In this document: in pieces, positions 4,240 to 25,116 of the stretch | How the letters are laid out: each line of letters opens with the position of its first letter | How positions within the stretch are numbered: the stretch's first letter is position 1 | IMG/VR virus record: IMGVR_UViG_3300010429_002123 | DNA from: a virus | Taxonomy: Duplodnaviria; Caudoviricetes | Length of the DNA: 64,000 nt | Strand: one strand, 5' to 3' | Position numbers and translations under genes: made by a program | Notes under the pieces: model-generated | What the model was told of the DNA's origin: nothing | The model's database searches: none | What the model saw: only the letters and a program-made list of their open reading frames with translations

Positions 4240-4240
4240 G

Positions 4241-5683: not shown

Positions 5684-5776
5684 AAACTGTTTGCTCCTCC
5701 TTATGAAAGGCTCATTAACACTTATTATAACATATTTTGTTAGTTTCTCACAGAGGATAGTCAAGAGGTTAAAGGT

Positions 5777-7467: not shown

Positions 7468-7486
7468 GGGGTATCACTCCTCTTCG

Positions 7487-8941: not shown

Positions 8942-8965
8942 GGTTTTCTTTCCTTTCTTCTGAGT

Positions 8966-9160: not shown

Positions 9161-10284
9161 TTTAGCATCTCCTTTTCCAGCAAGGGACTTATTCCGGCGT
9201 GCTCCCTTGTGTTAAACTCTTCTCTTTCTTTTTTTCGTCTTTCTACAAAGTTCTGTATAAAAGTCTCAGGGAGTTTTTTAGTTCTGTATAAGGCCACGCT
9301 TTTTTCTGTTTCTTCTTCAGAAAGCATAATCCTTACGTCCTCTTCCCCTTTGAATAGCTTGTCTATGGCTTCTTTGATTCCTTCACTTATCTTAGGACTT
9401 TTTCTTAGCTCTTTTAAGTAGTAGTCAGTATTTCCTTTATCCATATTTTTTATGTCTGTGTCTTCAATAGCTGTCTCCAATTTGCTTCTCCCATCAAGAA
9501 TCTTTCCATAGCGTTCGGAACCTGTGTCATTCAGAGAAACCCCAGAAACTCTAGCGTTTTTTAATATGTCAAAGATTTCATCTTTATCCGGGTATTTTAA
9601 CATTAGTTGGAAGAGCATGGGAGTAACAATATCCTGGTAGCAACCTTCCAGCATGTCTTCTGGTTTCACCCCTTCTACTCTTCCCGCACAAATTTTTCTG
9701 GCGAGAAGTTCTGTCAGCCCCTCTTCCATAAATTTCGCCTTTTCGGGGTCTTCTCCCCAGCCACCATAACCCTCTTTCCCTACGGCGTGTAGAAGTTCGT
9801 GAACAGGGGTGTTATAAAAATTGTATTTACTATCACTCAGGGCTGTTTCGTTGATGGCTATAAAGTTTCCTTTACTGTATACACCGAATATATGCTTTTT
9901 TTCTTCGCTGTAGAGTTTGCCAAACTCGTCTGCAGTTTTACAAACAAGAATACCTCTCCCTATAGGTAGGCTTTCCTCCAAGTCAAATTCTTTCTCGAGT
10001 GTGGTTTTCCACTCTTTACTGAATAGGTTCATATTATTATAATGTTTTTCTTTTTTCTGAGCCTCAGTATCAGAATCTGTTATTTTTTGCCAGCCCGTCA
10101 GTTTTTCCGGGTTTAAGGTGTCGCCTTCCCAGGCAGTTTTGTGTCTTATCCAGTTACCTGAGCCCACACCCCCGTCTTTTGGAGGACCCCCTTCTGTAAG
10201 TAAGACGGTGAGATATGCGGGATTAGTATAGCCCAAAGTAGAGAGGTATTCTTTTAGTTCTTTTATTCGTGTCACTCCGGTCAC
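9142..10284 (-). CDS. Zincin-like metallopeptidase paralog 6
   Basis: LLTE-GGPPKDGGVGSGNW, HELLH, EEGLTELLARK. Confidence 0.75.
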   Translation of the reverse strand: MTGVTRIKELKEYLSTLGYTNPAYLTVLLTEGGPPKDGGVGSGNWIRHKTAWEGDTLNPEKLTGWQKITDSDTEAQKKEKHYNNMNLFSKEWKTTLEKEFDLEESLPIGRGILVCKTADEFGKLYSEEKKHIFGVYSKGNFIAINETALSDSKYNFYNTPVHELLHAVGKEGYGGWGEDPEKAKFMEEGLTELLARKICAGRVEGVKPEDMLEGCYQDIVTPMLFQLMLKYPDKDEIFDILKNARVSGVSLNDTGSERYGKILDGRSKLETAIEDTDIKNMDKGNTDYYLKELRKSPKISEGIKEAIDKLFKGEEDVRIMLSEEETEKSVALYRTKKLPETFIQNFVERRKKEREEFNTREHAGISPLLEKEMLKWFLEK

Positions 10285-10362
10285 TCCTAACTGAATTCTT
10301 CCTGACTAAATGTCCTAGATTGATAAGAAGCCCTCTGAGTGGTTTAAAAGGGCTTTGAACCT

Positions 10363-10485
10363 TCAAGCATCGAATGTCTCTCGGTTTTTACTCTGTAAGG
10401 CTCTTCTCTCGGCGTATAAAGAGTATTTTCCATAGAAAAACCCGGCAAAAGCCGTAAGTAAAAGAGTTAATGCAAACAAAATCAC
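10363..10485 (-). CDS. Possible 40-aa single-pass membrane peptide
   Basis: GTG start overlaps the upstream stop. Reads MILFALTLLLTAFAGFFYGKY...; below the ORF-track size cutoff. Confidence 0.35.
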   Translation of the reverse strand: MILFALTLLLTAFAGFFYGKYSLYAERRALQSKNRETFDA

Positions 10486-10700
10486 TACACCATGACTCCT
10501 TTAGGAAGACCATCTAGAATAGCTATTTCCGGGGCGTGTACAGCTATTTCTGGGTCGAGTTCACAGAGTACCTTAAAAAGATTTTTAAAGGGCTTTTCAA
10601 TTCTTTTATAAAACTCTTTGTCCAGTTTACTTTGAAGAAGCTGGTCACGAAAGACCTCTTTCATCATCTCTATCTCTTTTTCTGTCATTTTCTTGTCCAT
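10485..10700 (-). CDS. Small partner protein of the zincin array
   Basis: ATG after GAGGTG. C-terminus EIAILDGLPKGVMV. Close paralog of 13784..14005. Confidence 0.75.
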   Translation of the reverse strand: MDKKMTEKEIEMMKEVFRDQLLQSKLDKEFYKRIEKPFKNLFKVLCELDPEIAVHAPEIAILDGLPKGVMV

Positions 10701-10721
10701 ACTTTTCACCTCTTTAATAAT

Positions 10722-10750
10722 AACATAGCACGTTTTGTCAAACTTGTCAA
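10722..10750 (-). promoter_or_regulatory. Sigma70/sigmaA-type promoter inside the zincin array
   Basis: Minus strand TTGACA-17 nt-TATGTT with extended TG. Confidence 0.65.
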
Positions 10751-10770
10751 GCCCTTTTTTACAACAATAT

Positions 10771-12234
10771 TTAGTCTTTATCGGGCTTCAGAAACCACTT
10801 TACTAACTTTTTCTCTAATCTGGGCTGTCTTTCAAAATCTAATTTATCTAAAGTTTTTTTATACTCTTTTAAGTCTTCTTTTGAATAACTGTAGGCGAAT
10901 TTAGCGAATTCCATCGCTTTTTTCTTTTCGTCGGGGGTCAGTTTTCCCCACCGAATGTCCCCAAATTCCTTTTCAGAAATTATACCATGTTCTTTAGCTT
11001 TTGTCATTATATGTTTGTAATTGAGTGGGCTATTCAGGGCTTCTATCCCATACTTTAGAGAGTTTGACCAGTCCTCCACGGTTTTTTTGTCCCCGGTTTT
11101 AGCCCCCTTTAAGTCCTCAAGGATACTATCTCTGTCTCCGGCGTGTTTTTCCAGCATATTAGCAAGAGTCACAACGACTTCGTCTTGATAACTGCCTAAA
11201 TCGGGAATGTGGGCATCTGAGAAATACTCAACAGTAAACTTTCTTGCCAATAACTCTGTGACAGCCTCCTCTTTGTCTAAGTTTATAGAAGTAACGTTTC
11301 TGGCAGACTTAAAGGGGTCATTTGTGTCTTTGCCCTTTAAATCCTCGGGGTCAAATCCTAGTTTTTCCGCCTGTTTTAAAAAGGCGGAAAGACTCTTTTG
11401 TTCCGGGATAAGAGCGAGGTTATTTAACTGACCAAGAGTATACTTCATCCCCTCTCTCCTGCCCCCGAACAAGTCCCCAGACAGTTCGTAAGCCTGATTA
11501 AACATCTCTCTGGACATCTTAAAAGTCGGTGGAATAAGGGTGTTATTCGGGTTTATAGCGTGGGCTAATTCCGACCCTACAAACTGTCCTTCAGCAGTCT
11601 TTGCAATTCCATGAAGGTACTCATGGGCTATAACCGTAAACTCCCCGGTTACTGTTGGCGAATAAGGTTGCTCATTAGAGAGGTTTTCCATAGTAGAAGG
11701 TTGAAAGCACGCTGTTGGAAGTTTGTTTGGGTAACCTGCCAGTTCGCAAAAGGCATAAAAATTTCTATTGTTATAGTTTTCACCGAATCTTTTTTCAAAT
11801 TCTTCTTTGGTCTGAGCCATGAAAATGTTTACTGAAGGTGTCTGAATTTTTAAAAAGTCCTGGCAGAGCCTGTTGTGGACTTCTGTAGCCAGTATTTTAG
11901 TATTTGCGTAAGATTTTATCTTTTTTGTCTCTTCTGAATCAGAATCCTTTAGTTTCTGCCAGCCGGGCAGGTTTTCAAGGGAAACTTTTTCAGGTCTGGT
12001 TTCCTGGTGACGGCTCCCTCTTTGTCCCCGTAGGAGCTCGTCGGCCTGTTTTATTCTGTCGAAGAAAGGGTTTATGGTGGCAGAAGGACTTGTATGTCTT
12101 ATCCAGTTTCCCGAACCTATTCCACCATCCTTAGGGGGTCCACCCTCGGAGAGTTTGTTCTGTATGAGTAGAGATAAATAGGCAGGGTTTTCTTTCCCAA
12201 GATTTTTAAGAATTTCTTTTGTTGTCATCAGCAA
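10771..12234 (-). CDS. Zincin-like metallopeptidase paralog 7
   Basis: KLSE-GGPPKDGGIGSGNW, HEYLH, EEAVTELLARK. Confidence 0.75.
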   Translation of the reverse strand: MLMTTKEILKNLGKENPAYLSLLIQNKLSEGGPPKDGGIGSGNWIRHTSPSATINPFFDRIKQADELLRGQRGSRHQETRPEKVSLENLPGWQKLKDSDSEETKKIKSYANTKILATEVHNRLCQDFLKIQTPSVNIFMAQTKEEFEKRFGENYNNRNFYAFCELAGYPNKLPTACFQPSTMENLSNEQPYSPTVTGEFTVIAHEYLHGIAKTAEGQFVGSELAHAINPNNTLIPPTFKMSREMFNQAYELSGDLFGGRREGMKYTLGQLNNLALIPEQKSLSAFLKQAEKLGFDPEDLKGKDTNDPFKSARNVTSINLDKEEAVTELLARKFTVEYFSDAHIPDLGSYQDEVVVTLANMLEKHAGDRDSILEDLKGAKTGDKKTVEDWSNSLKYGIEALNSPLNYKHIMTKAKEHGIISEKEFGDIRWGKLTPDEKKKAMEFAKFAYSYSKEDLKEYKKTLDKLDFERQPRLEKKLVKWFLKPDKD

Positions 12235-12236
12235 TG

Positions 12237-13787
12237 TTACCTTTCTAAAAACCAGTGAAGAATTTTCGATTCCAGGTCATAGTCTCTTCTCACTTTTATT
12301 CCTCGTAAAGTCTTTTCCTCGGCGGTCAGGCGGGACGTTTTCTCTTCTTTTGAAAACCATTTTGGGAACGCTTGTTCTGATTCTTTTAAACGGGCATTTA
12401 ACTCTTCTTTTGAATAACTTCCTTTTATAGAGTCAAATTCTGTAGCTGAGATTACTCCGTGTTTTAAGGCTGAGGTCATCATGTGTTTGTAGACTTTCTC
12501 GCTGTTTAGAGCCTCTACGCCATACTTTAAAGAGTTTGCCCATGACTGGACGGAAGGAATGTCCCCGTTTCGAGCCTGTTTTAAATCTTCAAAGGCCGAT
12601 TTTTTGTCTCCCCCGTGCTTTTCCAGCATGTTTCCAGCGAGAACCAGACTGTCATCATGGTATGAAGTCATACTGTCAGACAGACGTTTTGAATCTGCTG
12701 TGGGAACGTTTTCAAGTGTAAATTTTCTGGCTAAAAGTTCCGTGACAGCCTCCTCTAAGTTTACTTTAATGGGAGAAGAAGACTTTAAATTCGAAAAGGG
12801 GTCTTCAGACGTCCCTCTTTTTAAGTCCTCAGGGTCAATGCCTATTTCTTTTACTCTGGAGAAAAGGTCTTCCAGGCTGTTCGCCCCGTGGGTAGACAGC
12901 TCGTCCCGTAGCCATGATAATTTTTCAAGCTGAGAACGGGAATACTTTCTCCCTTCGGCATCTTGCACACGTCCTAGAGCCAGCTCTGTCTCTATTGGAA
13001 TGGTAAAAGTGGAATCTAATTCACTTTTTGGGAGAGACACGGAGAGGAGAGCAGGTAAGTCGTCTTTTCTACTTTCCGGGAGAGCATGTAAGAGTTCATG
13101 TGCCAACACTTTATATCTGTCTGCTGTGGTGTTTTCATCTTCCCCACTCATCTCCCTTGCGGTAATGTCGGAAAATACTACCAGTGGGGGGTGTTTACTT
13201 CTGTCGCAGAAGGCGGGAACACCTGTGCGGTCGTCTCTTCCCCTGAGTTGGGAAAACTCCAGGTCGTCTACCACAGCTATTTGAAAGGTAGTGTCTTTTA
13301 TGCTTAGCAAGTCGGCACTTACTTTTCTCGCCACGTCCCTTGCTACGAGTTTCAAATTGTGTGTTTCTTTTTGCAGTCTTCTTTCTGGAGAGTCCTCTTC
13401 TCTATTTATAATCTCCCACCCTTTAAGGGTCTGGGGGTAAGAAGGAGGCTTTCTTGGGGTTGATATGGGAGACTTCGTCGAGGAAGTCGGAGAAGAGTCA
13501 GCGTTGTGCAGGTCAGAAAGAATGTCTCCCCCCGTAAGAAGTGAAAACAAGTCCTCAAACTCCTTGTCAGATTTCTCTTTTTCTTTTCTCTCAATGTCCC
13601 TCTGGATTATGCTATTAAAAACAGGATTGTTAGACGTGTGTCTTATCCAGTTACCACTCCCAACTCCTCCGTCTTTCGGAGGACCTCCTTCGGAAAGAGC
13701 ACGAAAGACAAGAGTAGACAGATATACAGGGTTGCTGTGCTTTTTTTCCTGCAGTTCGCTTATGAGTTTGCGTATGTCCGTTCTCAT
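12237..13787 (-). CDS. Zincin-like metallopeptidase paralog 8
   Basis: ALSE-GGPPKDGGVGSGNW, HELLH, EEAVTELLARK. Confidence 0.75.
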   Translation of the reverse strand: MRTDIRKLISELQEKKHSNPVYLSTLVFRALSEGGPPKDGGVGSGNWIRHTSNNPVFNSIIQRDIERKEKEKSDKEFEDLFSLLTGGDILSDLHNADSSPTSSTKSPISTPRKPPSYPQTLKGWEIINREEDSPERRLQKETHNLKLVARDVARKVSADLLSIKDTTFQIAVVDDLEFSQLRGRDDRTGVPAFCDRSKHPPLVVFSDITAREMSGEDENTTADRYKVLAHELLHALPESRKDDLPALLSVSLPKSELDSTFTIPIETELALGRVQDAEGRKYSRSQLEKLSWLRDELSTHGANSLEDLFSRVKEIGIDPEDLKRGTSEDPFSNLKSSSPIKVNLEEAVTELLARKFTLENVPTADSKRLSDSMTSYHDDSLVLAGNMLEKHGGDKKSAFEDLKQARNGDIPSVQSWANSLKYGVEALNSEKVYKHMMTSALKHGVISATEFDSIKGSYSKEELNARLKESEQAFPKWFSKEEKTSRLTAEEKTLRGIKVRRDYDLESKILHWFLER

Positions 13788-14005
13788 ACCATTACCCCTT
13801 TAGGAAGACCGTCTAGAATAGCTATTTCCGCCCCGTGACAAGATATTCGGGGGTCGTATTGGATAAGTTCAGTATATAGTTTTTTAAAGGGCTTTTCAAT
13901 CTCTTTGTAAAAGTTTTTGTCCAGTTTGCTCTGGAGAAGCTGGGCTTTAAAAAGCCTCCTCATGTTTTCTAGTTCTTTCTCGGATTTTTTAGGTAACTTT
14001 CCCAC
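13784..14005 (-). CDS. Small partner protein of the zincin array
   Basis: C-terminus EIAILDGLPKGVMV. ATGA overlap with the downstream zincin. Confidence 0.75.
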   Translation of the reverse strand: MGKLPKKSEKELENMRRLFKAQLLQSKLDKNFYKEIEKPFKKLYTELIQYDPRISCHGAEIAILDGLPKGVMV

Positions 14006-14006
14006 A

Positions 14007-14204
14007 TTACACCTCTTTTACTTCTTTAATTACTGTTCCTAAAGTGAAACTCGCTCTGTAGCGTTCTTTACACTCCGTACAAGCGTAAGTGATTTCAACC
14101 TGGTCGGGAATGTTTCCCGCCAGAGGAACCCGGGTATGGGTTCGTATGAAAGAGTCATTCTCACAGTTACTACACGTTTTCATTAAAACTTTCTTTTTTG
14201 CCAT
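14007..14204 (-). CDS. Small zinc-ribbon protein
   Basis: CSNC and CTEC pairs, GAGGT RBS. Confidence 0.6.
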   Translation of the reverse strand: MAKKKVLMKTCSNCENDSFIRTHTRVPLAGNIPDQVEITYACTECKERYRASFTLGTVIKEVKEV

Positions 14205-14218
14205 GACATATCTACCTC

Positions 14219-15622
14219 TTAATCTTCCTTTATATTATAGAACCATTTTAGAATGGCCTCTTCAGTGCGTAAAGACCTCTGGGGAGAATACTTTTTCTTG
14301 TTCACCATTTCAGCGACCTCATGAGGCTTTAACCCCGATTTGTTAAGTGTGTTCATGTAACTTGAAAGCACACTTTCAGGAAGGTTACTTCTCTCCCTGT
14401 AATTTTGAAGTTCTTTGCTGTCTATTATACCATGTTTATGGGCTGTTTCCATCAGGTGCGTATAAGCTTGTTTATTATTAAAAACTTCAATACCAAACTT
14501 TAATGAATTCGCAAAGTCCTGGTTTTCTTTTTTTCCACCCATACGAGCAGTCTTTAAGTCTGAAAGAGCGGAGTCTCTATCCCCCTGATGTTTGTCCAAC
14601 ATGTTTGCAAGAAGAGCCACGGTTTCAAGAGGGTAGTTACCCTCGGTAAGAAATTTTGAACTCGTGTTTCCAATAAGTTCCTTAGTATAATGCCTTGCTA
14701 AAACTTCTGTGATGGCTTCTTCTTTATCGAGGTCTATTCTACTGTGTTGACCCAGTTTAGAGGAGTCTATATGTGCGAGGTTTATACCTACTTTTTCAAT
14801 CTCTTTTATGATTGCCTCTTCTGTGGGTCGAGTTCTGTAAGAGAGTCTGTTTACTTGTTCTTCCGTGTATAGCGGGTTACCGTTTTCGTCTTGTAATTTC
14901 AACAGTGCCTGACGGGTTTCTAAGGGTACGGAGTAGGCTCTTGGGAAAGTTTCTTTTGTGTTGGGTGTTGCACTGACATAAGTGTCTCCTTTGGAGGCAA
15001 GAAAGTCTGCTTCAGAAACGGCTTGCGGGGGAATAGCATGTATGTTTTCGTGCACAATAACGGAAATAGCCCTTTGCTGGTCTTCGGACAGAGTTCCTTC
15101 TATCTGGCCTATCTCCATAGAAGTATCAGCTTTAAAAACGGTAGAGATAGGTGTTCTGTTTCTGTTACAGAAAGCCACAATTCCTATGATGTTACCCTGT
15201 CCGAACAGTCTTTGAAACTCTTCAGAGGTTTTGGTCTGTATGATATTTAAGTTTTTCGGATTTGTTCCCAGTTCTTTGGAAAGCCTGTTGTGTAAGTCCT
15301 CCGCAAAAATCTTTGCGTTAGAAAAAGATTTGTTTTTTCGTGTGTCTTCCGAGTCTTCGGCGGATATTTTTTGCCAGCCCTCCAGAGTTTCCAGAGGTTT
15401 CTGAGCCTCTTTCACGGGGGGTAAATGAAGAGCCCAGTCTCTGTCGATGAGTTTATTAAAAATCGGATTATTACTTGTGTGTCTGGGGTAGTTTCCACTA
15501 CCTGGACCATCGGCAGAGGGTGGTCCTCCCTCGGCTAACTTTCTGGAGACAAGAAGAGTCAGTGTGGCGGGGGAAGAGTAACCTTCATTCTTTAACATAG
15601 AATACAAACAAGAATTAAGCAT
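14219..15622 (-). CDS. Zincin-like metallopeptidase paralog 9
   Basis: KLAE-GGPPSADGPGSGNY (variant), HENIH, EEAITEVLARH. Start set at ATG 15622. Confidence 0.75.
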   Translation of the reverse strand: MLNSCLYSMLKNEGYSSPATLTLLVSRKLAEGGPPSADGPGSGNYPRHTSNNPIFNKLIDRDWALHLPPVKEAQKPLETLEGWQKISAEDSEDTRKNKSFSNAKIFAEDLHNRLSKELGTNPKNLNIIQTKTSEEFQRLFGQGNIIGIVAFCNRNRTPISTVFKADTSMEIGQIEGTLSEDQQRAISVIVHENIHAIPPQAVSEADFLASKGDTYVSATPNTKETFPRAYSVPLETRQALLKLQDENGNPLYTEEQVNRLSYRTRPTEEAIIKEIEKVGINLAHIDSSKLGQHSRIDLDKEEAITEVLARHYTKELIGNTSSKFLTEGNYPLETVALLANMLDKHQGDRDSALSDLKTARMGGKKENQDFANSLKFGIEVFNNKQAYTHLMETAHKHGIIDSKELQNYRERSNLPESVLSSYMNTLNKSGLKPHEVAEMVNKKKYSPQRSLRTEEAILKWFYNIKED

Positions 15623-15635
15623 GAGTCGTTCCTTT

Positions 15636-15824
15636 CTAAACAATAACTCCTTCTGGGACTCCGTAGGTGAGAGCTATTCTAAGTTCTGCTCTTCCTAAAT
15701 CTTCAGGTTTTTCTTTTTCTATTCTTTTTCTGAGCTCTTCTATTTTCTTTTCCTGTGACTTTGTAATGTGCCCCTCTTTTAAGTCATTAAGATAATTATA
15801 TAAGTCGTCGATTGGATTTGACAT
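15636..15824 (-). CDS. Small partner protein of the zincin array
   Basis: C-terminus IALTYGVPEGVIV. Confidence 0.65.
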   Translation of the reverse strand: MSNPIDDLYNYLNDLKEGHITKSQEKKIEELRKRIEKEKPEDLGRAELRIALTYGVPEGVIV

Positions 15825-15825
15825 T

Positions 15826-17082
15826 TTAGTTCCCCTTTCTTAGCCAATGTGTTATAAGTGCCTTATGTAAAGTGTCTGAATATTTTGGATTTTCTGAGTC
15901 TGGTCTTGCATATCTGTCTTTCGCAAGTCTCTCTGAGTCTTCTTTTAAATATGTTTTTATTGCTTCTTTTACAGGGAGGAGGTCAGGGTTATCTGTTTTG
16001 TCTATAAGAGCCTGAAGTTTCTCTTTAAAGGCCGTCTGGGAACTCCACATCTTTCCCCTGTATGCCTGGTTGCTTTTTGTGACAACAGGATAGTCGGCCA
16101 TAAAAGCGGAAAGGTGTTCCCTTGAGGGAGAAAGTAATGCCCCTTTTATTTCCTCGTATAGCTTAGAGGTATCCCCATTATGCTTAAGAAGTCCCTGAGT
16201 GAGTAAGAGGGTAGTCTCAAGTTCATAACAGTGAAAGTGAGGGGGTTCGTCCGTAAGAGAGGTAATTACTTTTCCAGCAAGAAGTTCGGTAATTCCTTCC
16301 TGCATACTTCTGGCTCTCTCCTTTGTCTCCTCCCCCCTGACGAAACCAAAATCAGCCCTACGGACAGCTTCTTCCCAAGTCCAGCCATCGGAGCCTTCTC
16401 TTCTATTGTTGTCTTTGGCATGTATTGACTCGTGAACTATAACAGAAGAGGGATTGTTGCACTTAGATTCTCCCCGTGAAGTTGTGGGGTCTATATAGAT
16501 ATTGCCCGTATCTGCTTGATAAAAGCCTAGAATACTTTGAAGTGGAGGTATGCCTCTTTTTGGGTCATAAGATTCGGAAAATTCTTTGTATGAGTCCGGG
16601 ACAATAAGGTCTTTAATGTTCCTCCCTGAAGGGAACTCCTGGTCAAGGTACCGACGGAAATGTTCCTGAAAGAGTAGACAGTTGACCCGGCTTTTATCCT
16701 GTCTCATTTTTATGCCATCATCGGGGGTGATTTCTAGAAAAGGGATTTTACTCTTATCTAACTTGCCATCTATAATAGCGGTAACTTTTTTGTTCTCTTC
16801 AATAGCTTTTTGGGCGAGTTCAGCAGAGAGTCTTACCTTGTCTTTTTCCGGGGTAGGAAACCTTTTCTCCCAGTTAGCTTTGTATTGTTCCCAGTCAAAA
16901 TCGTCAAGGTCATCTTTTTTGCTCCTTGCCGGGTTTGGTTTTTCCGGTCTTATCCAGTTTCCTGAACCTACCCCGCCATCTTTTGGGGGACCACCCTCAA
17001 AAAGTTTTCGACGGAGAAGTAAAGAGAGATAAGAAGGCATAGAACAGCCGTTTGTTCTTAGTGTTTCTGTCAGATTAATCAT
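15826..17082 (-). CDS. Zincin-like metallopeptidase paralog 10 (first gene of the operon)
   Basis: KLFE-GGPPKDGGVGSGNW, HESIH, EGITELLAGK. Confidence 0.75.
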   Translation of the reverse strand: MINLTETLRTNGCSMPSYLSLLLRRKLFEGGPPKDGGVGSGNWIRPEKPNPARSKKDDLDDFDWEQYKANWEKRFPTPEKDKVRLSAELAQKAIEENKKVTAIIDGKLDKSKIPFLEITPDDGIKMRQDKSRVNCLLFQEHFRRYLDQEFPSGRNIKDLIVPDSYKEFSESYDPKRGIPPLQSILGFYQADTGNIYIDPTTSRGESKCNNPSSVIVHESIHAKDNNRREGSDGWTWEEAVRRADFGFVRGEETKERARSMQEGITELLAGKVITSLTDEPPHFHCYELETTLLLTQGLLKHNGDTSKLYEEIKGALLSPSREHLSAFMADYPVVTKSNQAYRGKMWSSQTAFKEKLQALIDKTDNPDLLPVKEAIKTYLKEDSERLAKDRYARPDSENPKYSDTLHKALITHWLRKGN

Positions 17083-17117
17083 GAAATTACCTTTCAAAAA
17101 AGCTCATTAATATCTTT

Positions 17118-17930: not shown

Positions 17931-18080
17931 GGCAAACGACTGGGTATATTACCTTACCCACATACACTCGCCCAACGGTAGGGCATAATCTTGAGGAGAT
18001 TACAGTAAGGGTTCAACTCCCTTGTGAGTTCTGGAAACAGAACTTTGTGGTTATAACTCGTGCCCGGTCGTTTGTTTGCC
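17931..18080 (+). ncRNA. Y-RNA-like ncRNA 1 carrying a tRNA-like domain (anticodon GAG)
   Basis: Terminal stem ACGACTGGGTAT/GTGCCCGGTCGT with 3' AACTC motif. Inside: D-arm GCCC-AACGGTA-GGGC, TAATC-TTGAGGA-GATTA, T-arm AAGGG-TTCAACT-CCCTT. Confidence 0.65.
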
Positions 18081-18105
18081 CAAAAATAAAAAGTCAGTAT
18101 TACAT

Positions 18106-18177
18106 GGCGGGGTGGAGCAGAGGTAGCTCGGTTGCCTCATAAGCAACAGGTCGAAAGTTCAAGTCTTTCCTCCGCTA
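18106..18177 (+). tRNA. tRNA-Met(CAT)
   Basis: Cloverleaf with GTTGC-CTCATAA-GCAAC anticodon arm. No encoded CCA. Confidence 0.85.
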
Positions 18178-18182
18178 TTAGA

Positions 18183-18318
18183 AAAGCCGTGCTATAACGT
18201 GTCTTACTTACAAACAAATTAGCTCACTTGGTAGAGCAAAAGTCTTAGGAACTTTAGGTCGTGGGTTCAACTCCCACATTTGTTGCCCAAAAATAGTAAA
18301 ACAGACTCGTACGGCTTT
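18183..18318 (+). ncRNA. Y-RNA-like ncRNA 2 carrying a tRNA-like domain (anticodon TAG)
   Basis: Terminal stem AAAGCCGTGC/GTACGGCTTT with TATAAC and GACTC motifs. Embedded cloverleaf AACAAAT...ATTTGTT with AAAGT-CTTAGGA-ACTTT. Confidence 0.7.
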
Positions 18319-18322
18319 ACCT

Positions 18323-18394
18323 GGGGGTGTAGCTCAATGGTAGAGCACCTGCCCTGCAAGCAGGGGGCTAGTGGTTCAAGTCCACCCATCTCCA
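18323..18394 (+). tRNA. tRNA-Ala(TGC)
   Basis: G3:U70 acceptor, CCTGC-CCTGCAA-GCAGG (C at position 33), T-arm GTGG-TTCAAGT-CCAC. Confidence 0.85.
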
Positions 18395-18397
18395 TCA

Positions 18398-18507
18398 GAG
18401 AGTCCTTACTCTAACGTAAAACGCTTACATACAGCGGACTCAAAATCCGTTCTTTACTGCAAAAAAAGAACTTGTAAACAAGGCGTTCTGAACTTGTGAG
18501 GACTCTT
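18398..18507 (+). ncRNA. Y-RNA-like ncRNA 3 carrying an isolated anticodon arm (CAA)
   Basis: Terminal stem AGAGTCCTTAC/GTGAGGACTCT with TCTAAC and AACTT motifs. Cargo GCGGA-CTCAAAA-TCCGT plus one hairpin. Confidence 0.65.
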
Positions 18508-18510
18508 CAC

Positions 18511-18656
18511 CGGGAGGTAGCTCAATTGGCAGAGCTCCAGACTTGTAAAAAGTTTCAGTTTTTATATCTCGTAACGTGTAGAAATACACGTTACTCTAAT
18601 CTTAAAAACTTACACTCATCTGGTTGTTATTGGTTCGAGTCCAATCCTCCCGACCA
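18511..18656 (+). ncRNA. tRNA-like RNA with the Y-like module inserted in the anticodon loop
   Basis: Acceptor CGGGAGG/CCTCCCG-ACCA, normal D and T arms. Stem CCAGA/TCTGG encloses a ~78-nt insert with ATCTC-GTAACGTGT-loop-ACACGTTAC-TCTAAT. Confidence 0.7.
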
Positions 18657-18663
18657 TATTTTT

Positions 18664-18699
18664 GGGGAACCGGAGGTTCAATTCCTCTCTTCCCCACCA
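18664..18699 (+). ncRNA. tRNA minihelix (acceptor stem plus T arm, encoded CCA)
   Basis: GGGGAA-CC-GGAGG-TTCAATT-CCTCT-C-TTCCCC-ACCA. Confidence 0.6.
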
Positions 18700-18700
18700 A

Positions 18701-18792
18701 TAGATAAATCCAGTCACCACCTCGGAGCTAACTTCTTTTTAGAGGTTTCTGAGGTAAGGCTTAGAAAGATTTCAGTTTAAAGAAAGTGAGTA
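18701..18792 (+). ncRNA. tracrRNA-like scaffold copy 1 (no CRISPR repeat follows)
   Basis: GATAAATCCAGTCAC...GAAAGTGAGT, homologous to copies at 19647, 20988 and 23052. Confidence 0.55.
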
Positions 18793-18820
18793 GTCACGGA
18801 AAAATATCTTATATAAATTT

Positions 18821-18893
18821 GCCCTTGTCGTCTAGTGGTCTAGGACATCGCCCTTTCACGGCGGAGACCGGGGTTCAAACCCCCGTGAGGGTA
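18821..18893 (+). tRNA. tRNA-Glu(TTC)
   Basis: Cloverleaf with TCGCC-CTTTCAC-GGCGG. Confidence 0.88.
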
Positions 18894-18898
18894 TTATT

Positions 18899-19045
18899 TA
18901 TAGGGTGCTACGACTGATATTATATACACACAATATTTAGGTTCGAATCCTAAACATCGAAGCAATTCGAAGTTTGCCTAATGGTAAGGCGAATGACTGA
19001 TAATCATTTTTTGTTTAGCTCTATAATATCGACTCGTACCCTATA
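18899..19045 (+). ncRNA. Y-RNA-like ncRNA 4 carrying a circularly permuted tRNA (anticodon GAT)
   Basis: Stems TATAGGGTGC/GTACCCTATA and GATATTATA/TATAATATC with TACGAC and GACTC motifs. Inner order is T-arm, capped acceptor hairpin, D-arm, anticodon arm. Confidence 0.75.
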
Positions 19046-19048
19046 TAT

Positions 19049-19130
19049 GGGTGAGTGGTGGAACTGGCAGACACGCTGGACTTAGAATCCAGTGAGGAAA
19101 CTCATGGGAGTTCGATTCTCTCCTTACCCA
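19049..19130 (+). tRNA. tRNA-Leu(TAG)
   Basis: CTGGA-CTTAGAA-TCCAG and long variable arm TGAG-GAAA-CTCA. Confidence 0.92.
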
Positions 19131-19140
19131 TTAAAAATAA

Positions 19141-19170
19141 GTGACAAATCCAGTCACTGCCTTGAAGCAA
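19141..19170 (+). repeat. Truncated 5' fragment of the tracrRNA-like scaffold
   Basis: GTGACAAATCCAGTCAC between tRNA-Leu and tRNA-Ser. Confidence 0.55.
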
Positions 19171-19256
19171 GGAAGGATGGCAGAGTGGTTTATTGCGGTA
19201 GACTTGAAACCTATTGGCCGAAAGGCACGGGGGTTCGAATCCCTCTCCTTCCTCCA
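19171..19256 (+). tRNA. tRNA-Ser(TGA)
   Basis: Loop CTTGAAA, long variable arm GCC-GAAA-GGC, encoded CCA. Confidence 0.9.
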
Positions 19257-19264
19257 GGTAGTAT

Positions 19265-19339
19265 GGGGCGTTGGTGTAGTCTGGTTAACACATCTGCCTG
19301 TCACGCAGAAGAGCAGGAGTTCAAATCTCCTACGCCTCG
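19265..19339 (+). tRNA. tRNA-Asp(GTC)
   Basis: TCTGC-CTGTCAC-GCAGA, G73. Confidence 0.92.
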
Positions 19340-19439
19340 TCATTGTATAAAAAAGGAGAGAATATTCAAGCAATCAATGAGTCTCTCAAATACTTTGTAT
19401 AGTTTTCCTGAAGGAATGAAAAATTATTGAGGGTAGTTT

Positions 19440-19640
19440 TTGAAAAAGGATAAAGGTTTAATGGAAGAAATAGAATTTACAGAGGATGTCTATGTGAGTG
19501 TATATATAAATGAAGGAGAAAAAAGTATTCCTCTTATGGCCGACCTCATAGTGAGGAAGGGGAGTCGCCTCAGCGTAAGAACCGAGAGCCTGAGAAAAAA
19601 CATCTCTACTATTATAAAAACAAGCATTGACAAAAGTTAA
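19440..19640 (+). CDS. Hypothetical protein
   Basis: 66-aa ORF with GAGG upstream. Confidence 0.4.
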   Translation: MKKDKGLMEEIEFTEDVYVSVYINEGEKSIPLMADLIVRKGSRLSVRTESLRKNISTIIKTSIDKS

Positions 19641-19646
19641 AAATAA

Positions 19647-19756
19647 GTGATAAATCCAGTCACAGCTCCGAAGTTAACTTCTTTTTAGAAGTTTTTGGGG
19701 TAGGGCTTACAAAACTTTCAGTTTATAGAAAGTGAGTCATTAAGCCAAACTAACGG
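19647..19756 (+). ncRNA. tracrRNA-like scaffold copy 2, fused to array A
   Basis: Covarying hairpins. Ends in CCAAACTAAC, complementary to the repeat 3' part GTTAGTTGG. Confidence 0.6.
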
Positions 19757-19918
19757 GTTTCTAAGGAACATGGTTAGTTGGAAAGTGAGTAATAATCTGT
19801 CCACTCTCCGTTGAAGAGTCGAGTTTCTGAAGAAACATGTTTAGTTGGAAAGTTTGGGATTTCTATTTCAAAATCTTTTCCGTTAATGGTTTTCTGGGAA
19901 ACATGGTTAGAGATAAAG
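19757..19918 (+). CRISPR. CRISPR mini-array A: 3 degenerate repeats (29-30 nt), 2 spacers (37 and 36 nt)
   Basis: Repeats at 19757-19785, 19823-19852 and 19889-19918, similar to GTTTCTAAGGAACATGGTTAGTTGGAAAG. Confidence 0.75.
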
Positions 19919-19958
19919 ATACAAAAGTAAATAAAGAAAAGAAAAGTTTAAAAGAGGC

Positions 19959-19987
19959 TTGACAAAAAGTCTAAAATTTAATAAAAT
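19959..19987 (+). promoter_or_regulatory. Sigma70/sigmaA promoter for the large Y-like RNA
   Basis: TTGACA-17 nt-TAAAAT, 8 nt upstream of the RNA terminal stem. Confidence 0.75.
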
Positions 19988-19994
19988 GAAAAAT

Positions 19995-20240
19995 AAGAAC
20001 TTGCTCTAATATTAATAGCATACAAACGCGACGCAAGTCGTTTTGATGGTTGAGCAAACCAACAATTTAAAGTGCCCTGAGAGTATGCCAGCAGTAAATC
20101 CCTGGTATACTCAAACACAGAGCAAAAACTTCATCTCGAAGAGAGAAGAGTTCTCAGGATACTCTGTAAGAGCCCGTTGCGACGGGAAGTAGCTGAAGTA
20201 AAAAGTAAAAACCTGTTGCTGTCATAACTTGTGAGTTCTT
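19995..20240 (+). ncRNA. Large Y-RNA-like ncRNA with a ~200-nt multi-hairpin cargo
   Basis: Terminal stem AAGAACTTGC/GTGAGTTCTT with TCTAAT and AACTT motifs. Internal hairpins include GAGTATGCCAG/CTGGTATACTC, ACAGAG/CTCTGT and CCCGT/ACGGG. Confidence 0.65.
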
Positions 20241-20256
20241 TCCCTTCGGGGTTATT

Positions 20257-20868
20257 TTGGTTGTTTTCATTCTTTTTGCAATGAGAGGAACCCTTTTAGT
20301 GTACGAGGCACACAGTTTCTTGTTCGACGAGGATGAGCAGGAGCAGGAAGTAGAAATACCATATGAGGAAAGTCTTGCCGTAAAAAACAAACTCGCTCTG
20401 AAAAAGTTGTTAACCCTCAGAAAAGAAAAGCGAAAGACTGTTATCAGAGAAGAAGTTGTGGAAATTCGTGTGTCCTTTTCGGAAACGAGACCCTTTAGAC
20501 CCACTGGAACACCCCCGGAAGAACAGAATCACCCCAAGTGTGACCCCCCGGAAAACTGTTGGAAAAAGCCCCGTAATAAAGCAGGGGATATGGCCTACCG
20601 TCTAAAGCAGGGAGAAGATACCAGAAAAAGATGGCAAAATCCTGATTTTCGAAACAAAATGAAAGAGATTTATAAGAACAGACCCCCCCTCTCGCAGGAA
20701 GTTATAGAAAAAAGAGGAGAGAGCCACAAGAAGTATAAAGGTTTTGTTTCAGAATGGGAAGACCTGCTGAAAACAGGCTGGACTAAGAAAGAGATAAGTA
20801 TAAAGTATGAAGTTCCTTACTCTACATTAAAACGCTATTTAAACACCTACAAGAAAAACCCACGCTAA
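20257..20868 (+). CDS. NUMOD3-like and C-terminal HTH DNA-binding protein (start uncertain, possibly ATG 20590)
   Basis: NPDFRNKMKE...LSQEVIEKRGESHK and TKKEISIKYEVPYSTLKRYL. Confidence 0.5.
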   Translation: MVVFILFAMRGTLLVYEAHSFLFDEDEQEQEVEIPYEESLAVKNKLALKKLLTLRKEKRKTVIREEVVEIRVSFSETRPFRPTGTPPEEQNHPKCDPPENCWKKPRNKAGDMAYRLKQGEDTRKRWQNPDFRNKMKEIYKNRPPLSQEVIEKRGESHKKYKGFVSEWEDLLKTGWTKKEISIKYEVPYSTLKRYLNTYKKNPR

Positions 20869-20930
20869 CGCCCTTTCTATCTCTCTTTTCACAGGCGAAA
20901 AAGAAAGTTAAATTATTTTTACAAAACCTC

Positions 20931-20960
20931 TTGACAATTTATACTACGATATGATACACT
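20931..20960 (+). promoter_or_regulatory. Promoter upstream of scaffold copy 3 and the TROVE gene
   Basis: TTGACA-18 nt-TACACT with extended TG. A similar TATGATAC..TGTATTA segment precedes scaffold copy 4. Confidence 0.6.
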
Positions 20961-20987
20961 GTATTAGCATCAACAAAGTTAAAATAA

Positions 20988-21107
20988 GCGATAAATCCAG
21001 TCGTAGTCCTGAAGCTAAGTCTTTTTTAAGACTTTTTAGGACAAGGCTTAGAAAGTTTCCAGCTCGAAAGAGCTTATCGAAAGTGAGTAATTAGGCCAGC
21101 CTAACGG
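20988..21107 (+). ncRNA. tracrRNA-like scaffold copy 3
   Basis: Compensatory variants GCGA/TCGT, GTCCTGAAG/TTTTAGGAC and CCTAAC/GTTAGG. Extra hairpin AGCTC-GAAA-GAGCT. Confidence 0.6.
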
Positions 21108-21137
21108 GTTTATACCCAAACATGGTTAGGAGGAAAG
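21108..21137 (+). CRISPR. Solitary CRISPR repeat (unit B) followed by a putative guide
   Basis: GTTTATACCCAAACATGGTTAGGAGGAAAG, 30 nt, homologous to the repeats of arrays A and C. Confidence 0.6.
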
Positions 21138-21242
21138 ATTGAAAAAGAGCGACAGAAAAAAGACTCTTCGTCTTCGAGGGCGAAAACTCAGAGAGTAAAA
21201 GACTTTGAATAAGACTACGAATAAGAAGGAGGCGTGTCTATT

Positions 21243-22736
21243 ATGGCAAATCAGAAAGAACAGGATTACAGACTTCAGATGTTAAATTCTTTCCTGATGA
21301 CTCCTCACGGAGCTCTGGATAGACTGAAGAATTTACATCAGGAAATGGCGAAAAATGACCCTATTTTTTACGCCCACCTGGCTTCATGGTATAATAAAAA
21401 CGGAGAAGTCAGAGACCATAAAGAGTTGTTTTCTGCCCATTTAATGACAGGTGATGTAGCGTTTAGAGACACAGGTTGTGCCTTGCTTGAGGTACTTCCT
21501 CCGTATCAGGTTGCAAAAATAATGGACTATTGCAAAAAGACTCTGAACAAGTTTCCGAAGATAGCACGAAAGACCGTAGAGAGCTACCTAAAGACCAGAG
21601 AAAAAGATTCAGCATGGTTCGATTCCTCAGTGGTAAGAGGAAAGAAGGCTATAAAGCACTTATACGCTTCTGTAAGGGTAAAACCTTCAGAGAGAGCTCA
21701 GAAGATACTTTTTGAGAACAATCCTCCTCAGGATAGCACTCTGTATTCCCTGAAGCTCCTTGCGAAGGAGACAGAACCCACAAAGCAGGCAAAGATTATC
21801 TTTGACCACAAGATACCCTACCCTATTGCTATAGGTGCAGTAAAGACTGTAAGTCCTTCTTTGCTGGTAGCTCTGGTGAATAACATGTCCAGCCAGGAAC
21901 TTATAAACAATATGTCTTCTCTTCAAAAAAGAGGAGCTTATGAGATAGAAGGGCTGAAGAAAATCATAGAAGAAAAGCTCGTAGACGCCCAGAAGGACAA
22001 GAGGGTCTCTACTTTAAAGGCGAGAGTAGCCGTAAAACAGGCGAACTTGTCTGCTGACTTGACCGAAAATCTTGAAAAAGTAGCTACAGTCAAGGCACAA
22101 AGTAAGGGAACTATTAATAAACCTCTGGCAATCTTTATTGATAAGTCCGGTAGTATGGATATAGCCATAAAAATAGGAAAAGAAGTTGCTACTCTGTGTT
22201 CCGGTATTTCAACTTCCGACTTATTTGTCTACGCTTTTGACACTATGGGTTTTCCTGTTACAGCCTCCGGGAAAAAAGACATGGCTGACTGGGAAAAGGC
22301 TTTTAGAGGTATTTGTGCCGGTGGTGGAACCAGCATAGGAATAGCTTTAGAGCTGATGAGAAGAAAGAAAGAGAGAGTAGAGCACATTATCATCATAACT
22401 GACGAATGTGAAAACTCTTCTCCCTATTTTCACGACGCTTATAAGGCTTATTGCGAGTGCTTGTATACTTACCCCACGGTGACTGTGGTAAAAGTAGGGA
22501 ACGCGACAGAAGGAGCTTGCTGGGGAGACACTTTACTGTCCTCTTCCCTGAAAGCACACGCTATTGACCATATGATTTTTCACTTTACTGGTGATTACTA
22601 CTCACTGCCTAACATTATACCGATGATAAACCAGTCAAGTAAATTAGATTTATTGCTTGAGATAATGGAAACTCCCTTACTGGCGAGGAAAAAGACAAAA
22701 AAAGCCTTAAAAGAGGCCGAAGAACTCGTAGCGTAG
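21243..22736 (+). CDS. TROVE/Ro60-like RNA-binding protein with C-terminal vWA domain
   Basis: Helical N-terminal region (DPIFYAHLASWY...RD), then MIDAS DKSGS, GGTS and IIITDE. ~500 aa, like Ro60/Rsr. Adjacent to tRNA-like RNAs. Confidence 0.7.
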   Translation: MANQKEQDYRLQMLNSFLMTPHGALDRLKNLHQEMAKNDPIFYAHLASWYNKNGEVRDHKELFSAHLMTGDVAFRDTGCALLEVLPPYQVAKIMDYCKKTLNKFPKIARKTVESYLKTREKDSAWFDSSVVRGKKAIKHLYASVRVKPSERAQKILFENNPPQDSTLYSLKLLAKETEPTKQAKIIFDHKIPYPIAIGAVKTVSPSLLVALVNNMSSQELINNMSSLQKRGAYEIEGLKKIIEEKLVDAQKDKRVSTLKARVAVKQANLSADLTENLEKVATVKAQSKGTINKPLAIFIDKSGSMDIAIKIGKEVATLCSGISTSDLFVYAFDTMGFPVTASGKKDMADWEKAFRGICAGGGTSIGIALELMRRKKERVEHIIIITDECENSSPYFHDAYKAYCECLYTYPTVTVVKVGNATEGACWGDTLLSSSLKAHAIDHMIFHFTGDYYSLPNIIPMINQSSKLDLLLEIMETPLLARKKTKKALKEAEELVA

Positions 22737-22749
22737 CGAGTAAGCCAAC

Positions 22750-22779
22750 AAAAGGGAGGAGTAAAATCCTCCCTTTTTT
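22750..22779 (+). terminator. Rho-independent terminator
   Basis: AAAGGGAGG/CCTCCCTTT hairpin and T tract after the TROVE gene. Confidence 0.75.
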
Positions 22780-23029
22780 GTGCAAGGAAAGGACTAACAT
22801 CATGTATGGAACGGTAACAGTTTATACAGGCACTGAAAGTGTCAAATACAGGGTCTCTAAAGAAGAGATAGAAAAACTGAAAAAAGAAGTGAATAATCTC
22901 GAAGTGACCCGGGTGACCTTTACTCACAGCCCTTCCCATAGAAGCACGGTTTGTGCGGGTAGGACTGTCTGTGTAAACTTATTAAATGTGCAGGTATTTG
23001 AAATTCTTGACTATGATACGATGTATTAA
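22778..23029 (+). CDS. Hypothetical protein
   Basis: ORF with likely ATG at 22802 after AAGGA. Confidence 0.5.
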   Translation: MCKERTNIMYGTVTVYTGTESVKYRVSKEEIEKLKKEVNNLEVTRVTFTHSPSHRSTVCAGRTVCVNLLNVQVFEILDYDTMY

Positions 23030-23051
23030 CATCGATGGAGATTTAAAATAT

Positions 23052-23161
23052 GTGATAAATCCAGTCACAGTCCCGAAGTTAAGTCTTAAAAAAGACTTTT
23101 TGGGGTAAGGCTTAGAAAACTTTCAGTTTATAGAAAGTGAGTCATTAAGCCAAACTAACGG
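23052..23161 (+). ncRNA. tracrRNA-like scaffold copy 4, fused to array C
   Basis: Close to copy 2. Hairpin AAGTCTT/AAGACTT replaces AACTTC/GAAGTT. Confidence 0.6.
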
Positions 23162-23389
23162 GTTTCTAAAGGAACATGGTTAGATGGGAAGCATAATATA
23201 GTCCTCTGAAAATCTATATTCAAAAGAGTTTCTAAAGGAACATGGTTAGATGGGAAGGATTAATTTCAGATGCTCTAGTTGCCTCTCTGTAGGGTTTCTA
23301 AAGGAACATGGTTAGATGGAAAGGTGGGGAGAAAAAAACAGAGTCGCAACTTTTGTGCGGTTTCCGAGGAAACATAGTTAGTTGGGAAG
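23162..23389 (+). CRISPR. CRISPR mini-array C: 4 repeats of 30 nt, 3 spacers of 36 nt
   Basis: GTTTCTAAAGGAACATGGTTAGATGGGAAG at 23162, 23228, 23294 (1 change) and 23360 (degenerate). Exact 66-nt period with unique spacers. Confidence 0.88.
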
Positions 23390-24492: not shown

Positions 24493-25116
24493 ATGACCTG
24501 TGGACTGGGTATTGACCTGGGGATAAAAACCTATGTCTCTTTGAGTAACGGGATGACTTTTAAAGGAATAGAGAAGTCCAAAACTTTTCAAGAAAAGGAA
24601 AGGAACTTACGAAAAGAGCAAGGAAAACTTGTTAAATTAAGAAAAGGAAAACGAAGACGGAGTTATGAGGCTTGCGGAGCTTATTTAGCCCAAAAGAAGA
24701 AGGTGCAAGCCCTTTTTGATTCTGTCAAAAAATTAAAAGAACTCTATATAGATAAAATCATAGAACAAATTCTTAGACTAAACCCCGTGTACATAGCTAT
24801 AGAACATCTTGACATTCGAGGTATGACTAAAGGTTCTATGGCGAAACCTCTACTCGCTCGGAAATTTAACTACTTCAGGAAAGCCCTGACGAAAAAGTGT
24901 AAAGAAAAAAACGTAGAGTTACGCTTAGTTGATACTTATTTTCCCTCGTCAAAGAAGTGCTCGAGATGCGGGAATGTAAAAAAGAGTCTGCTATTAGAAG
25001 AACGTATTTACTACTGTGAAAAATGTGGACTTGAACTGGACAGAGACCTGAACGCCTCCATAAACCTCAGGGATGCTACCGATTACAAATTAGCTTTCAA
25101 GCTAAAAGCCTCTTAA
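24493..25116 (+). CDS. tnpB: TnpB/Cas12f-like RuvC plus zinc finger, lacking the N-terminal half
   Basis: GIDLGIK (RuvC I), IEHL (RuvC II), SSKKCSRCG...CEKCG, DRDLNAS (RuvC III). 207 aa, with its own GAGG RBS. Confidence 0.85.
   Translation: MTCGLGIDLGIKTYVSLSNGMTFKGIEKSKTFQEKERNLRKEQGKLVKLRKGKRRRSYEACGAYLAQKKKVQALFDSVKKLKELYIDKIIEQILRLNPVYIAIEHLDIRGMTKGSMAKPLLARKFNYFRKALTKKCKEKNVELRLVDTYFPSSKKCSRCGNVKKSLLLEERIYYCEKCGLELDRDLNASINLRDATDYKLAFKLKAS

Follow-up and report, generated by a model that had tools for sequence, protein, structure and literature searches.

The window analysed here, a 64,000-nucleotide (nt) stretch of viral DNA (IMG/VR record IMGVR_UViG_3300010429_002123), carries copies of a ~115-nt RNA-like element, the scaffold, that mostly run into short CRISPR-like arrays. 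Places 49-64000 of the window correspond to the reverse strand of a 183,650-bp IMG/VR viral contig with an estimated completeness of 78%, in which the scaffold occurs 14 times in full and once as a fragment (with four of the full copies and the fragment in the window). In 13 of the 14 full copies, the scaffold is followed immediately by a 30-nt repeat, the first in an array of one to five repeats, and we refer to scaffold and array together as a cassette. Each cassette is probably a guide-RNA gene for the phage's own TnpB-derived nuclease of 774 amino acids (aa), and the guides would probably be directed against competing phages.

Scaffold copies and arrays in the window

The copies were located by repeat finding and with R1, a covariance model of the phage copies. 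A second covariance model, R2, was built from the RNA just 3' of six tnpB genes homologous to the 774-aa gene and contains no phage-cassette sequence. The cassette region holds the following features.

18694-18812, plus strand: degenerate scaffold copy (R1 match 18694-18824, 88.7 bits)
19134-19170, plus strand: scaffold fragment (R1 match 19134-19216, 23.7 bits, E 0.0013; also located by repeat finding)
19640-19756, plus strand: cassette A scaffold, with helices P1-P5 and the CTAAC end (R1 169.8 bits; R2 18.2 bits)
19757-19918, plus strand: array A, with repeats at 19757-19785, 19823-19852 and 19889-19918 (the last degenerate) and spacers of 37 and 36 nt
20931-20960, plus strand: predicted sigma-70-like promoter, TTGACA-18 nt-TACACT with TG, ~20 nt before the cassette B scaffold model and ~27 nt before P1
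20981-21107, plus strand: cassette B scaffold (R1 148.6 bits; R2 18.6 bits)
21108-21137, plus strand: array B, a single repeat, with the start of a Ro60-like gene ~100 nt downstream
23045-23161, plus strand: cassette C scaffold (R1 171.8 bits; R2 32.0 bits; fold z = -4.4)
23162-23389, plus strand: array C, with repeats at 23162-23191, 23228-23257, 23294-23323 and 23360-23389 and three 36-nt spacers

The R1 matches of cassettes A, B and C cover 19640-19791, 20981-21143 and 23045-23197 (149-172 bits), and the non-degenerate copies of the contig together range from 149 to 180 bits. Cassette A is preceded by a TTGACA at 19627-19632, cassette B has an extra GAAA-loop hairpin inserted in P5, and the start codon of the gene after cassette C (23425) lies 35 nt past the last repeat. 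In the degenerate copy, helices P1-P3 and P5 are still present, while P4 is missing its 3' strand and neither the CTAAC end nor the repeat remains; this copy runs instead into a tRNA-Glu gene (18820-18894); the fragment, composed of an A-rich lead-in, P1 and a short hairpin, abuts a tRNA-Ser gene (19171-19256). A pattern search with the scaffold returned eight matches in IMG/VR and three in metagenome contigs, none of them a real copy by R1. An initial annotation, made from the window's letters, had placed the element and its fragment at these positions and had three copies running straight into a 29-30-nt repeat; sequence, repeat finding and R1 bear out the positions, and the three junctions are as described. 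The covariance model that it had proposed as a check was built as R1 and finds the 14 copies and the fragment in the contig.

The scaffold is a covarying structured RNA

Helix scoring was based on A1, an alignment of the 14 full copies, which contains five helices (P1-P5) and a sixth that joins the scaffold end CTAAC to the GTTAG of repeat 1. In A1, 97.6% of the cells form pairs, compared with 34-51% when the partners are slid by one to three columns, and 16 pairs have changed on both sides, compared with zero to three in the slid controls; none of 500 shuffles reached the observed pairing score. The cassette C copy has a folding energy of -39.2 kcal/mol (z = -4.4). These results confirm that the ~115-nt element is a strongly covarying structured RNA gene. 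Since the 16 compensatory pairs are kept at a mean column identity of only ~77%, the preservation of pairing in diverging sequences points to selection on the RNA. Rfam searches of the scaffold region found only tRNAs at the gathering threshold and no other match at E up to 1.

Two of the covarying stems had already been picked out in the initial annotation (GTGA/TCAC versus GCGA/TCGT, and AACTTC/GAAGTT versus AAGTCTT/AAGACTT); they hold up in A1 and correspond to P1 and P3. Its further claim, that the last bases of the scaffold pair and covary with the 3' end of the repeat, stands in its first part, as CTAAC and GTTAG do pair, and fails in its second, as these bases hardly vary. An additional pair beyond CTAAC/GTTAG, on which the covariation had been read, is A-T in cassette A, C-G in B and an A/A mismatch in C; being formed in only about 5 of the 13 cassettes, it is not evidence of covariation. 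The sixth helix is thus plausible, with no support from covariation.

Comparison with the omegaRNAs of TnpB transposons

Comparison with transposons supports the view that the scaffold is a domesticated omegaRNA (or right-end element RNA, reRNA), descended from that of the ISCbt1-type IS605 TnpB clade. An RNA-like element laid out like the phage scaffold follows directly on the stop codon of homologous tnpB genes: its P1 hairpin is succeeded by a P2 helix with GTTAA and P3 inside it, the motif AAAGYCTTAGA, another hairpin and the motif GGAAG. R2 matches this same position, directly after orfB, in three named phages outside its training set (E-values 1e-13 to 3.5e-10), and it also matches more distant members of the clade. 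In the 184-kb phage DNA, the five best R2 matches are all cassettes (E = 5.6e-4, 0.03, 0.06, 0.3 and ~1 in a 220-kb search), with E-values that are modest for the weaker cassettes and roughly calibrated; in the 4.9-kb region, the window cassettes are the top three (C, 1.2e-5; B, 0.008; A, 0.0099). Because a model trained on transposons only finds the cassettes as its best matches in the phage, the scaffold is regarded as a descendant of the omegaRNA of that TnpB clade. In the opposite direction, a search of transposon RNAs with R1 detected none except, weakly, the one in L045, just 3' of a homologue of the 774-aa gene (15.5 bits).

The 30-nt repeat is most likely the 3' module of the omegaRNA, multiplied together with its guide. 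The CCCC...GGGAG right-end hairpin is absent from the cassettes. The initial annotation had called the scaffold tracrRNA-like, after the trans-activating CRISPR RNA; a structured RNA ahead of the array is indeed present, yet "unsplit omegaRNA" is the better label, because the "anti-repeat" comprises only 5 bp. At the ISCbt1-type loci (L038, L041, L043-L047, L056, L063-L065), a variable A/T-rich stretch of 10-16 nt lies between the GGAAG/AGAAG motif and the AAGAACCCC right-end hairpin; this stretch is missing in L041/L043.

A predicted TnpB/Cas12-fold nuclease encoded by the same phage

The initial annotation had recommended looking for Cas12f/TnpB-type genes in the rest of the genome, and the phage does encode a TnpB/Cas12-fold protein, its gene flanked by two cassettes. 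This 774-aa open reading frame (ORF; L035:3147-5471, minus strand) lies on the same contig, 83 kb from the window. One cassette precedes the gene and the other starts 77 nt past its stop codon, which is the place where an omegaRNA would sit; most cassettes are not beside it.

The protein has no significant Pfam match over its whole length and no match in the PDB sequence search, and the latter result made a fold search necessary. Its 72 homologues are ~500 aa long; some of them contain PF01385 or PF07282, and one is encoded next to a Y1 transposase (Y1_Tnp, TnpA). The protein also matches the phrog_506 "transposase" family (4.9e-27). The closest relative shares 44% identity over 39% of the length, and IMG/VR holds distant relatives only. 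Homologues in cultured phages are ISCbt1-type IS200/IS605 OrfB proteins (phage c-st, Geobacillus virus E3 and C. difficile phages; 37-40% identity), found only in phages of Clostridium, Clostridioides and Geobacillus. Residues D444, E560 and D655 are invariant in a 39-sequence alignment and make up the split D-E-D triad of the RuvC fold.

The AlphaFold model has a predicted local distance difference test (pLDDT) score of 73 overall and above 85 over most of RuvC (residues ~440-480, 520-570 and 590-710). Foldseek searches with this model retrieved Cas12f, ISFba1 TnpB, ISDra2 TnpB, Cas12m and LaTranC with a probability of 1.00, the best structural match being Cas12f (E 2e-12) and LaTranC ranking 28th with 14% identity. 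By fold and homology, the 774-aa protein is a TnpB/Cas12-fold nuclease whose nearest relatives are ISCbt1-type IS605 TnpBs. Relative to them it carries a ~270-residue insertion. Between RuvC-II and RuvC-III, neither the protein nor the clade consensus has the CxxC pairs of the zinc ribbon (TNB), for which the match is weak (17.1 bits); the missing cysteines are a trait of the clade and not a break in this gene.

The window itself contains a second TnpB-related ORF of 207 aa (24493-25116, plus strand), which corresponds to the RuvC and TNB half of a canonical TnpB (PF07282, 2.5e-19; PF01385, 2.2e-10), with the D/E/D residues and CxxC pairs visible, and has ~440 nt of non-coding DNA behind it. 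The nearest relatives, proteins of 250-360 aa, share 43-45% identity with it. The ORF was set aside as the effector because it has no WED or REC domain and comes from a different lineage than the 774-aa protein, and it is probably an N-terminally truncated insertion sequence (IS) remnant.

Repeats, spacers and targets

The repeat has the 30-nt consensus GTTTCTAAAGAAACATGGTTAGATGGAAAG, beginning with GTTTC and ending with GGAAAG. Spacers are mostly 36-38 nt long, and eight of them measure 0-25 nt; with such short or missing spacers, the arrays look shaped by recombination, which fits better than Cas1-Cas2 integration. The internal guides would be the array spacers, with flanking DNA present only behind the last repeat. 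For one spacer, located outside the window, the encoded residues agree with a gene of the same phage at 11 of 12 positions and the nucleotides at only 25 of 36, which would fit capture from a related phage; orthologues of this gene were not found in IMG/VR. BLAST and tblastx searches of the spacers against the phage's own genome gave only one synonymous match, outside the window. For the window, a blastn search of the cassette region against 50,697 phage records returned chance matches only, and exact 24-nt scans with four spacers found nothing.

The arrays might alternatively exploit a class 1 (type I or III) system of the host, with Cas6 cutting the repeats and the products serving in inter-virus conflict or as RNA anti-CRISPR decoys, so that the upstream element would be a leader only. 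The repeat does resemble such systems in its length, its GTTTC start and its GGAAAG end, which by eye is like the ATTGAAAG 8-nt tag of type I-A, I-B and III repeats; spacers of mostly 36-38 nt are also in keeping with this, and the repeats with short spacers or none recall solitary repeat units. However, the repeat pattern has no match in 185,579 reference genomes, IMG/VR or metagenome contigs, in searches from which records of the window's own genome were possibly left out and which, as the host is not identified, are not exhaustive. Moreover, targeted searches of the contig found neither Cas6 nor Cas1, and the supposed leader is a covarying RNA that is homologous to TnpB omegaRNA and also flanks the TnpB-like gene, unlike a DNA leader. 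We therefore consider this explanation very unlikely, and Cas6 processing for a host type I/III system, named in the initial annotation as one of two results that would overturn its reading, finds no support.

Gene context and transcription

All 13 array-bearing cassettes lie between two genes in the orientation of the downstream gene. The distance from the upstream stop codon to the cassette ranges from a 10-nt overlap to 113 nt, and that from the cassette to the next called start codon is mostly 9-130 nt, with three cassettes at 200-340 nt. No plus-strand terminator is predicted between the window cassettes and their downstream genes. A transcript from the predicted promoter at 20931-20960 would hold the whole cassette B scaffold. 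In one metatranscriptome, the depth of RNA-library contigs rises at this promoter from 2-4 to 18-44 and stays up through repeat B and the Ro60-like gene, whereas the single listed contig of DNA run X1 (depth 66) spans the cassette region without that step. RNA-library contigs over the cassettes have an uneven depth of 2 to 136; as the repeated scaffold interrupts the assemblies, RNA ends cannot be read from them. The step is a weak hint that cassette B is co-transcribed with the Ro60-like gene. As another candidate, a transcription start at a conserved TCGAC-17-AYAAAT motif was rejected, since it would remove P1, which covaries and occurs in the transposon RNAs.

Such a placement could also mean that the element is a cis-acting 5'-leader RNA, for example for antitermination or stability of early or middle operons and of tRNA transcripts, with the repeats being incidental. 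The same orientation of all 13 array cassettes between a stop and the next start codon and the lack of predicted terminators behind those of the window would suit a leader, as would the two copies that precede tRNA genes instead of repeats. Yet these two are precisely the degenerate ones (88.7 and 23.7 bits, against 149-180 bits for the others), and a leader function leaves the omegaRNA homology, the fused repeats and the unique spacers unexplained, making this reading highly improbable.

Directly after cassette B, the window encodes a Ro60/TROVE-like protein of 500 aa with a vWA domain (DxSxS motif; 21234-22736, plus strand). The assignment rests on an Atlas feature score of 0.95 and a structural TM-score of 0.73 to TROVE/Ro60-vWA clusters, Pfam and PDB sequence searches being silent. 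Its start ~100 nt past cassette B raises the question of whether the scaffolds are Y-RNA-like partners of this protein. Arguing against such a role, which we regard as extremely unlikely, most copies are remote from the Ro60-like gene, the TnpB-like gene has a copy on either side, there is a match between the scaffold and the ISCbt1-type TnpB omegaRNA, and neither a Y RNA nor any other family besides tRNA was found in the Rfam searches described above. A better Y-RNA candidate is the abundant structured RNA at ~20016-20237.

This RNA (plus strand, z = -3.3) lies behind a TTGACA-17-TAAAAT promoter (19959-19987) and has no Rfam match. It forms a separate ~200-nt contig in each of two metatranscriptomes, and in a third (X2) it is contained in a high-depth 845-nt contig (19725-20569) that partly covers a 203-aa ORF called at 20257-20868. 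It may be a Y-like partner of the Ro60-like gene or another small RNA of the phage.

Proposed mechanism and its weighing

The initial annotation had read the cassettes as dispersed, natural single guides that serve a compact type V or TnpB-derived effector in trans, and the present results support this, because a candidate effector exists, the scaffold descends from the omegaRNA of the effector's clade, and the host class 1 route is unsupported. We envisage that a promoter of its own or read-through provides for the transcription of each cassette, as the 5' part of the transcript of the downstream gene, and that scaffold and repeat 1 are bound jointly by the nuclease. Repeat 1 would be held on the scaffold by the CTAAC:GUUAG helix and the spacer 3' of this repeat would serve as the guide, forming a natural single guide, while repeat-spacer units further along would depend on pairing with a scaffold in trans. 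Matching DNA, most likely that of competing phages, would then be cut by the conserved D-E-D RuvC site.

Several observations weigh against the proposal. No protospacer or target-adjacent motif emerged for any window spacer in the searches above. The scaffold-proximal spacer is only 7-9 nt long in three cassettes, and other short spacers measure 0, 8, 14, 22 and 25 nt, so that some units cannot guide; the repeat-spacer units after the first have no scaffold of their own. The helix between scaffold and repeat has only 5 bp and does not covary, there are two possible ways of aligning the 30-nt repeat with the transposon RNA's 3' part, and the weaker cassettes have modest E-values with R2. For cassette A, the best -35/-10 spacing would place the transcription start within P1, and the contig also contains the truncated TnpB.

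Part of this evidence would equally suit selfish or decaying non-autonomous IS605-type remnants (solo omegaRNA or PATE-like elements) that have spread through intergenic regions without use to the phage. The scaffold derives from a transposon RNA, spacers are truncated or missing, one copy is degenerate and another a fragment, no TnpA was found in the contig, and no targets were found for the window spacers. On the other hand, 16 compensatory pairs at ~77% mean column identity imply selection on the RNA, the 774-aa nuclease keeps its catalytic triad, the 13 array cassettes are intergenic and share the orientation of the gene downstream, and one spacer seems to have been taken from a related phage. 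Mere remnants are therefore unlikely.

A reading in which the cassettes home by RNA guidance, as a TnpB counterpart to the intronless Seg/Mob homing of T4, is likewise improbable. From its last repeat, each cassette continues directly into the region where the neighbouring gene starts, so that the terminal "guide" is flanking DNA, as in a transposon omegaRNA. If homing did occur, the nuclease would in mixed infections cut the same site in related phages without the cassette, the break would be repaired from the cassette-bearing genome, with the cassette and the genes beside it being copied into the rival, and the internal spacers would in addition kill more distant competitors outright. Compared with homing, a set of guide-RNA genes for the 774-aa nuclease is the reading that we prefer.

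Comparison with known systems

The closest known systems are TranC and the phage-borne Cas12r, and the present system is of that kind. TranC comprises TnpB lineages that use arrays after their reRNA was split into a tracrRNA plus a CRISPR RNA (crRNA) (Jin et al., Cell 2025, as summarised in PMC13565253 and PMC13639567), and a phage-borne example, CauTranC9 (TranC9), has been described (bioRxiv 10.64898/2026.03.27.714800). Like TranC, the phage combines an effector derived from an IS605-lineage TnpB with short CRISPR-like arrays and a guide RNA derived from the transposon reRNA, without adaptation genes, and arrays lie on both sides of the 774-aa gene, as type V and TranC effectors adjoin arrays. 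In those summaries, however, TranC has its reRNA split into a separate tracrRNA and crRNA at one locus, whereas here the scaffold DNA is continuous with repeat 1. Furthermore, the phage scaffold is present at at least 13 dispersed loci, each with its own array of one to five repeats and directly upstream of a phage gene, and the 774-aa protein is not close to LaTranC (14% identity). Cas12r of the Thermus Lalka phages is a TnpB-like nuclease active against phages and plasmids (bioRxiv 10.64898/2026.04.20.719267). It shares with the present system a phage-encoded TnpB-like nuclease, a short array (of degenerate 29-bp repeats in Cas12r) and the lack of adaptation genes, yet it works with crRNA only, made from a single array directly behind the gene and needing neither tracrRNA nor scaffold (same source), unlike the cassettes described here.

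Among transposons, the IS200/IS605 TnpB-omegaRNA systems (ISCbt1-type; solved for ISDra2 and ISFba1) have a homologous protein of the same fold. The scaffold shares P1, the nested P2/P3 and a AAGGCTTAGAAA-like motif with the ISCbt1-type omegaRNA, and one cassette lies just 3' of the gene, as noted above. In contrast to IS605 elements, the phage contig has no TnpA/Y1 transposase, the cassettes lack the right-end hairpin, the protein has its ~270-aa insertion, and the guide is a spacer inside a repeat array, not flanking DNA only.

Type V-F Cas12f, the best structural match, likewise has a structured RNA upstream of the array and the spacer 3' of the repeat. However, the Cas12f tracrRNA is a separate gene with a long anti-repeat, whereas the phage scaffold has 5 bp of complementarity and a covalent link, and no cas1, cas2 or cas4 accompanies the phage system (Cas1 being the one searched for). 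The scoutRNA of Cas12c and Cas12d is a structured accessory RNA with few base pairs to the repeat, made as a separate transcript and belonging to an unrelated sequence family; compared by description, the phage scaffold is similarly held to the repeat by few base pairs. Virus-borne mini-arrays, solitary repeat units and RNA anti-CRISPRs lack cas genes and copy the repeats of a host system. The arrays described here resemble them in having one to five repeats, some without spacers, and differ in that their repeat, unmatched in the searched reference genomes, is joined to a scaffold derived from an omegaRNA.

No close relative of the 774-aa effector or of the cassette was found in the collections searched. 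In the published model for the birth of type V CRISPR systems, exemplified by TranC, a transposon guide RNA is split into tracrRNA and crRNA. A scaffold still joined to repeat 1, with further repeat-spacer units added behind it, is a natural state not described in the TranC and Cas12r literature compared here, and the guide unit would moreover have multiplied to at least 13 loci serving one nuclease. It thus becomes testable whether arrays grew before the RNA was split, whether a 5-bp contact is enough for a scaffold to act in trans, and why the phage keeps guide genes directly upstream of its own genes. The cassettes would also provide a ready-made natural single-guide design for a TnpB-lineage nuclease.

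Genome setting and other features of the window

The proteins encoded by the contig include a T4-type portal, a prohead protease, a gp23 capsid protein, a DnaB-like helicase and an intein-bearing RecA, and by this gene content the source is a large T4-like phage. The stretch is present in public runs from anaerobic-digester and activated-sludge samples.

At 303-17097 (minus strand), the window holds ten tandem paralogous ORFs of 380-516 aa, many pairs of which are 27-42% identical over most of their length; the N-terminal ~50-80 residues are better conserved (up to 61%). Significant Pfam matches are lacking for all ten, the five searched against PHROG have no match there, and Pfam searches of these ORFs and of the genes next to the cassettes gave nothing bearing on the cassettes.

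A cluster of about ten tRNA genes occupies 17961-19341 (plus strand). One gene in it (18511-18653) has a ~70-nt insertion and is recognised by Rfam (54.7 bits) and not called by ARAGORN, and a weak tRNA-like match lies at 18968-19032. Outside the window, the RecA/UvsX-like gene at L033:7646-10306 (minus strand) is split by an intein with a LAGLIDADG endonuclease and lies directly downstream of a cassette.

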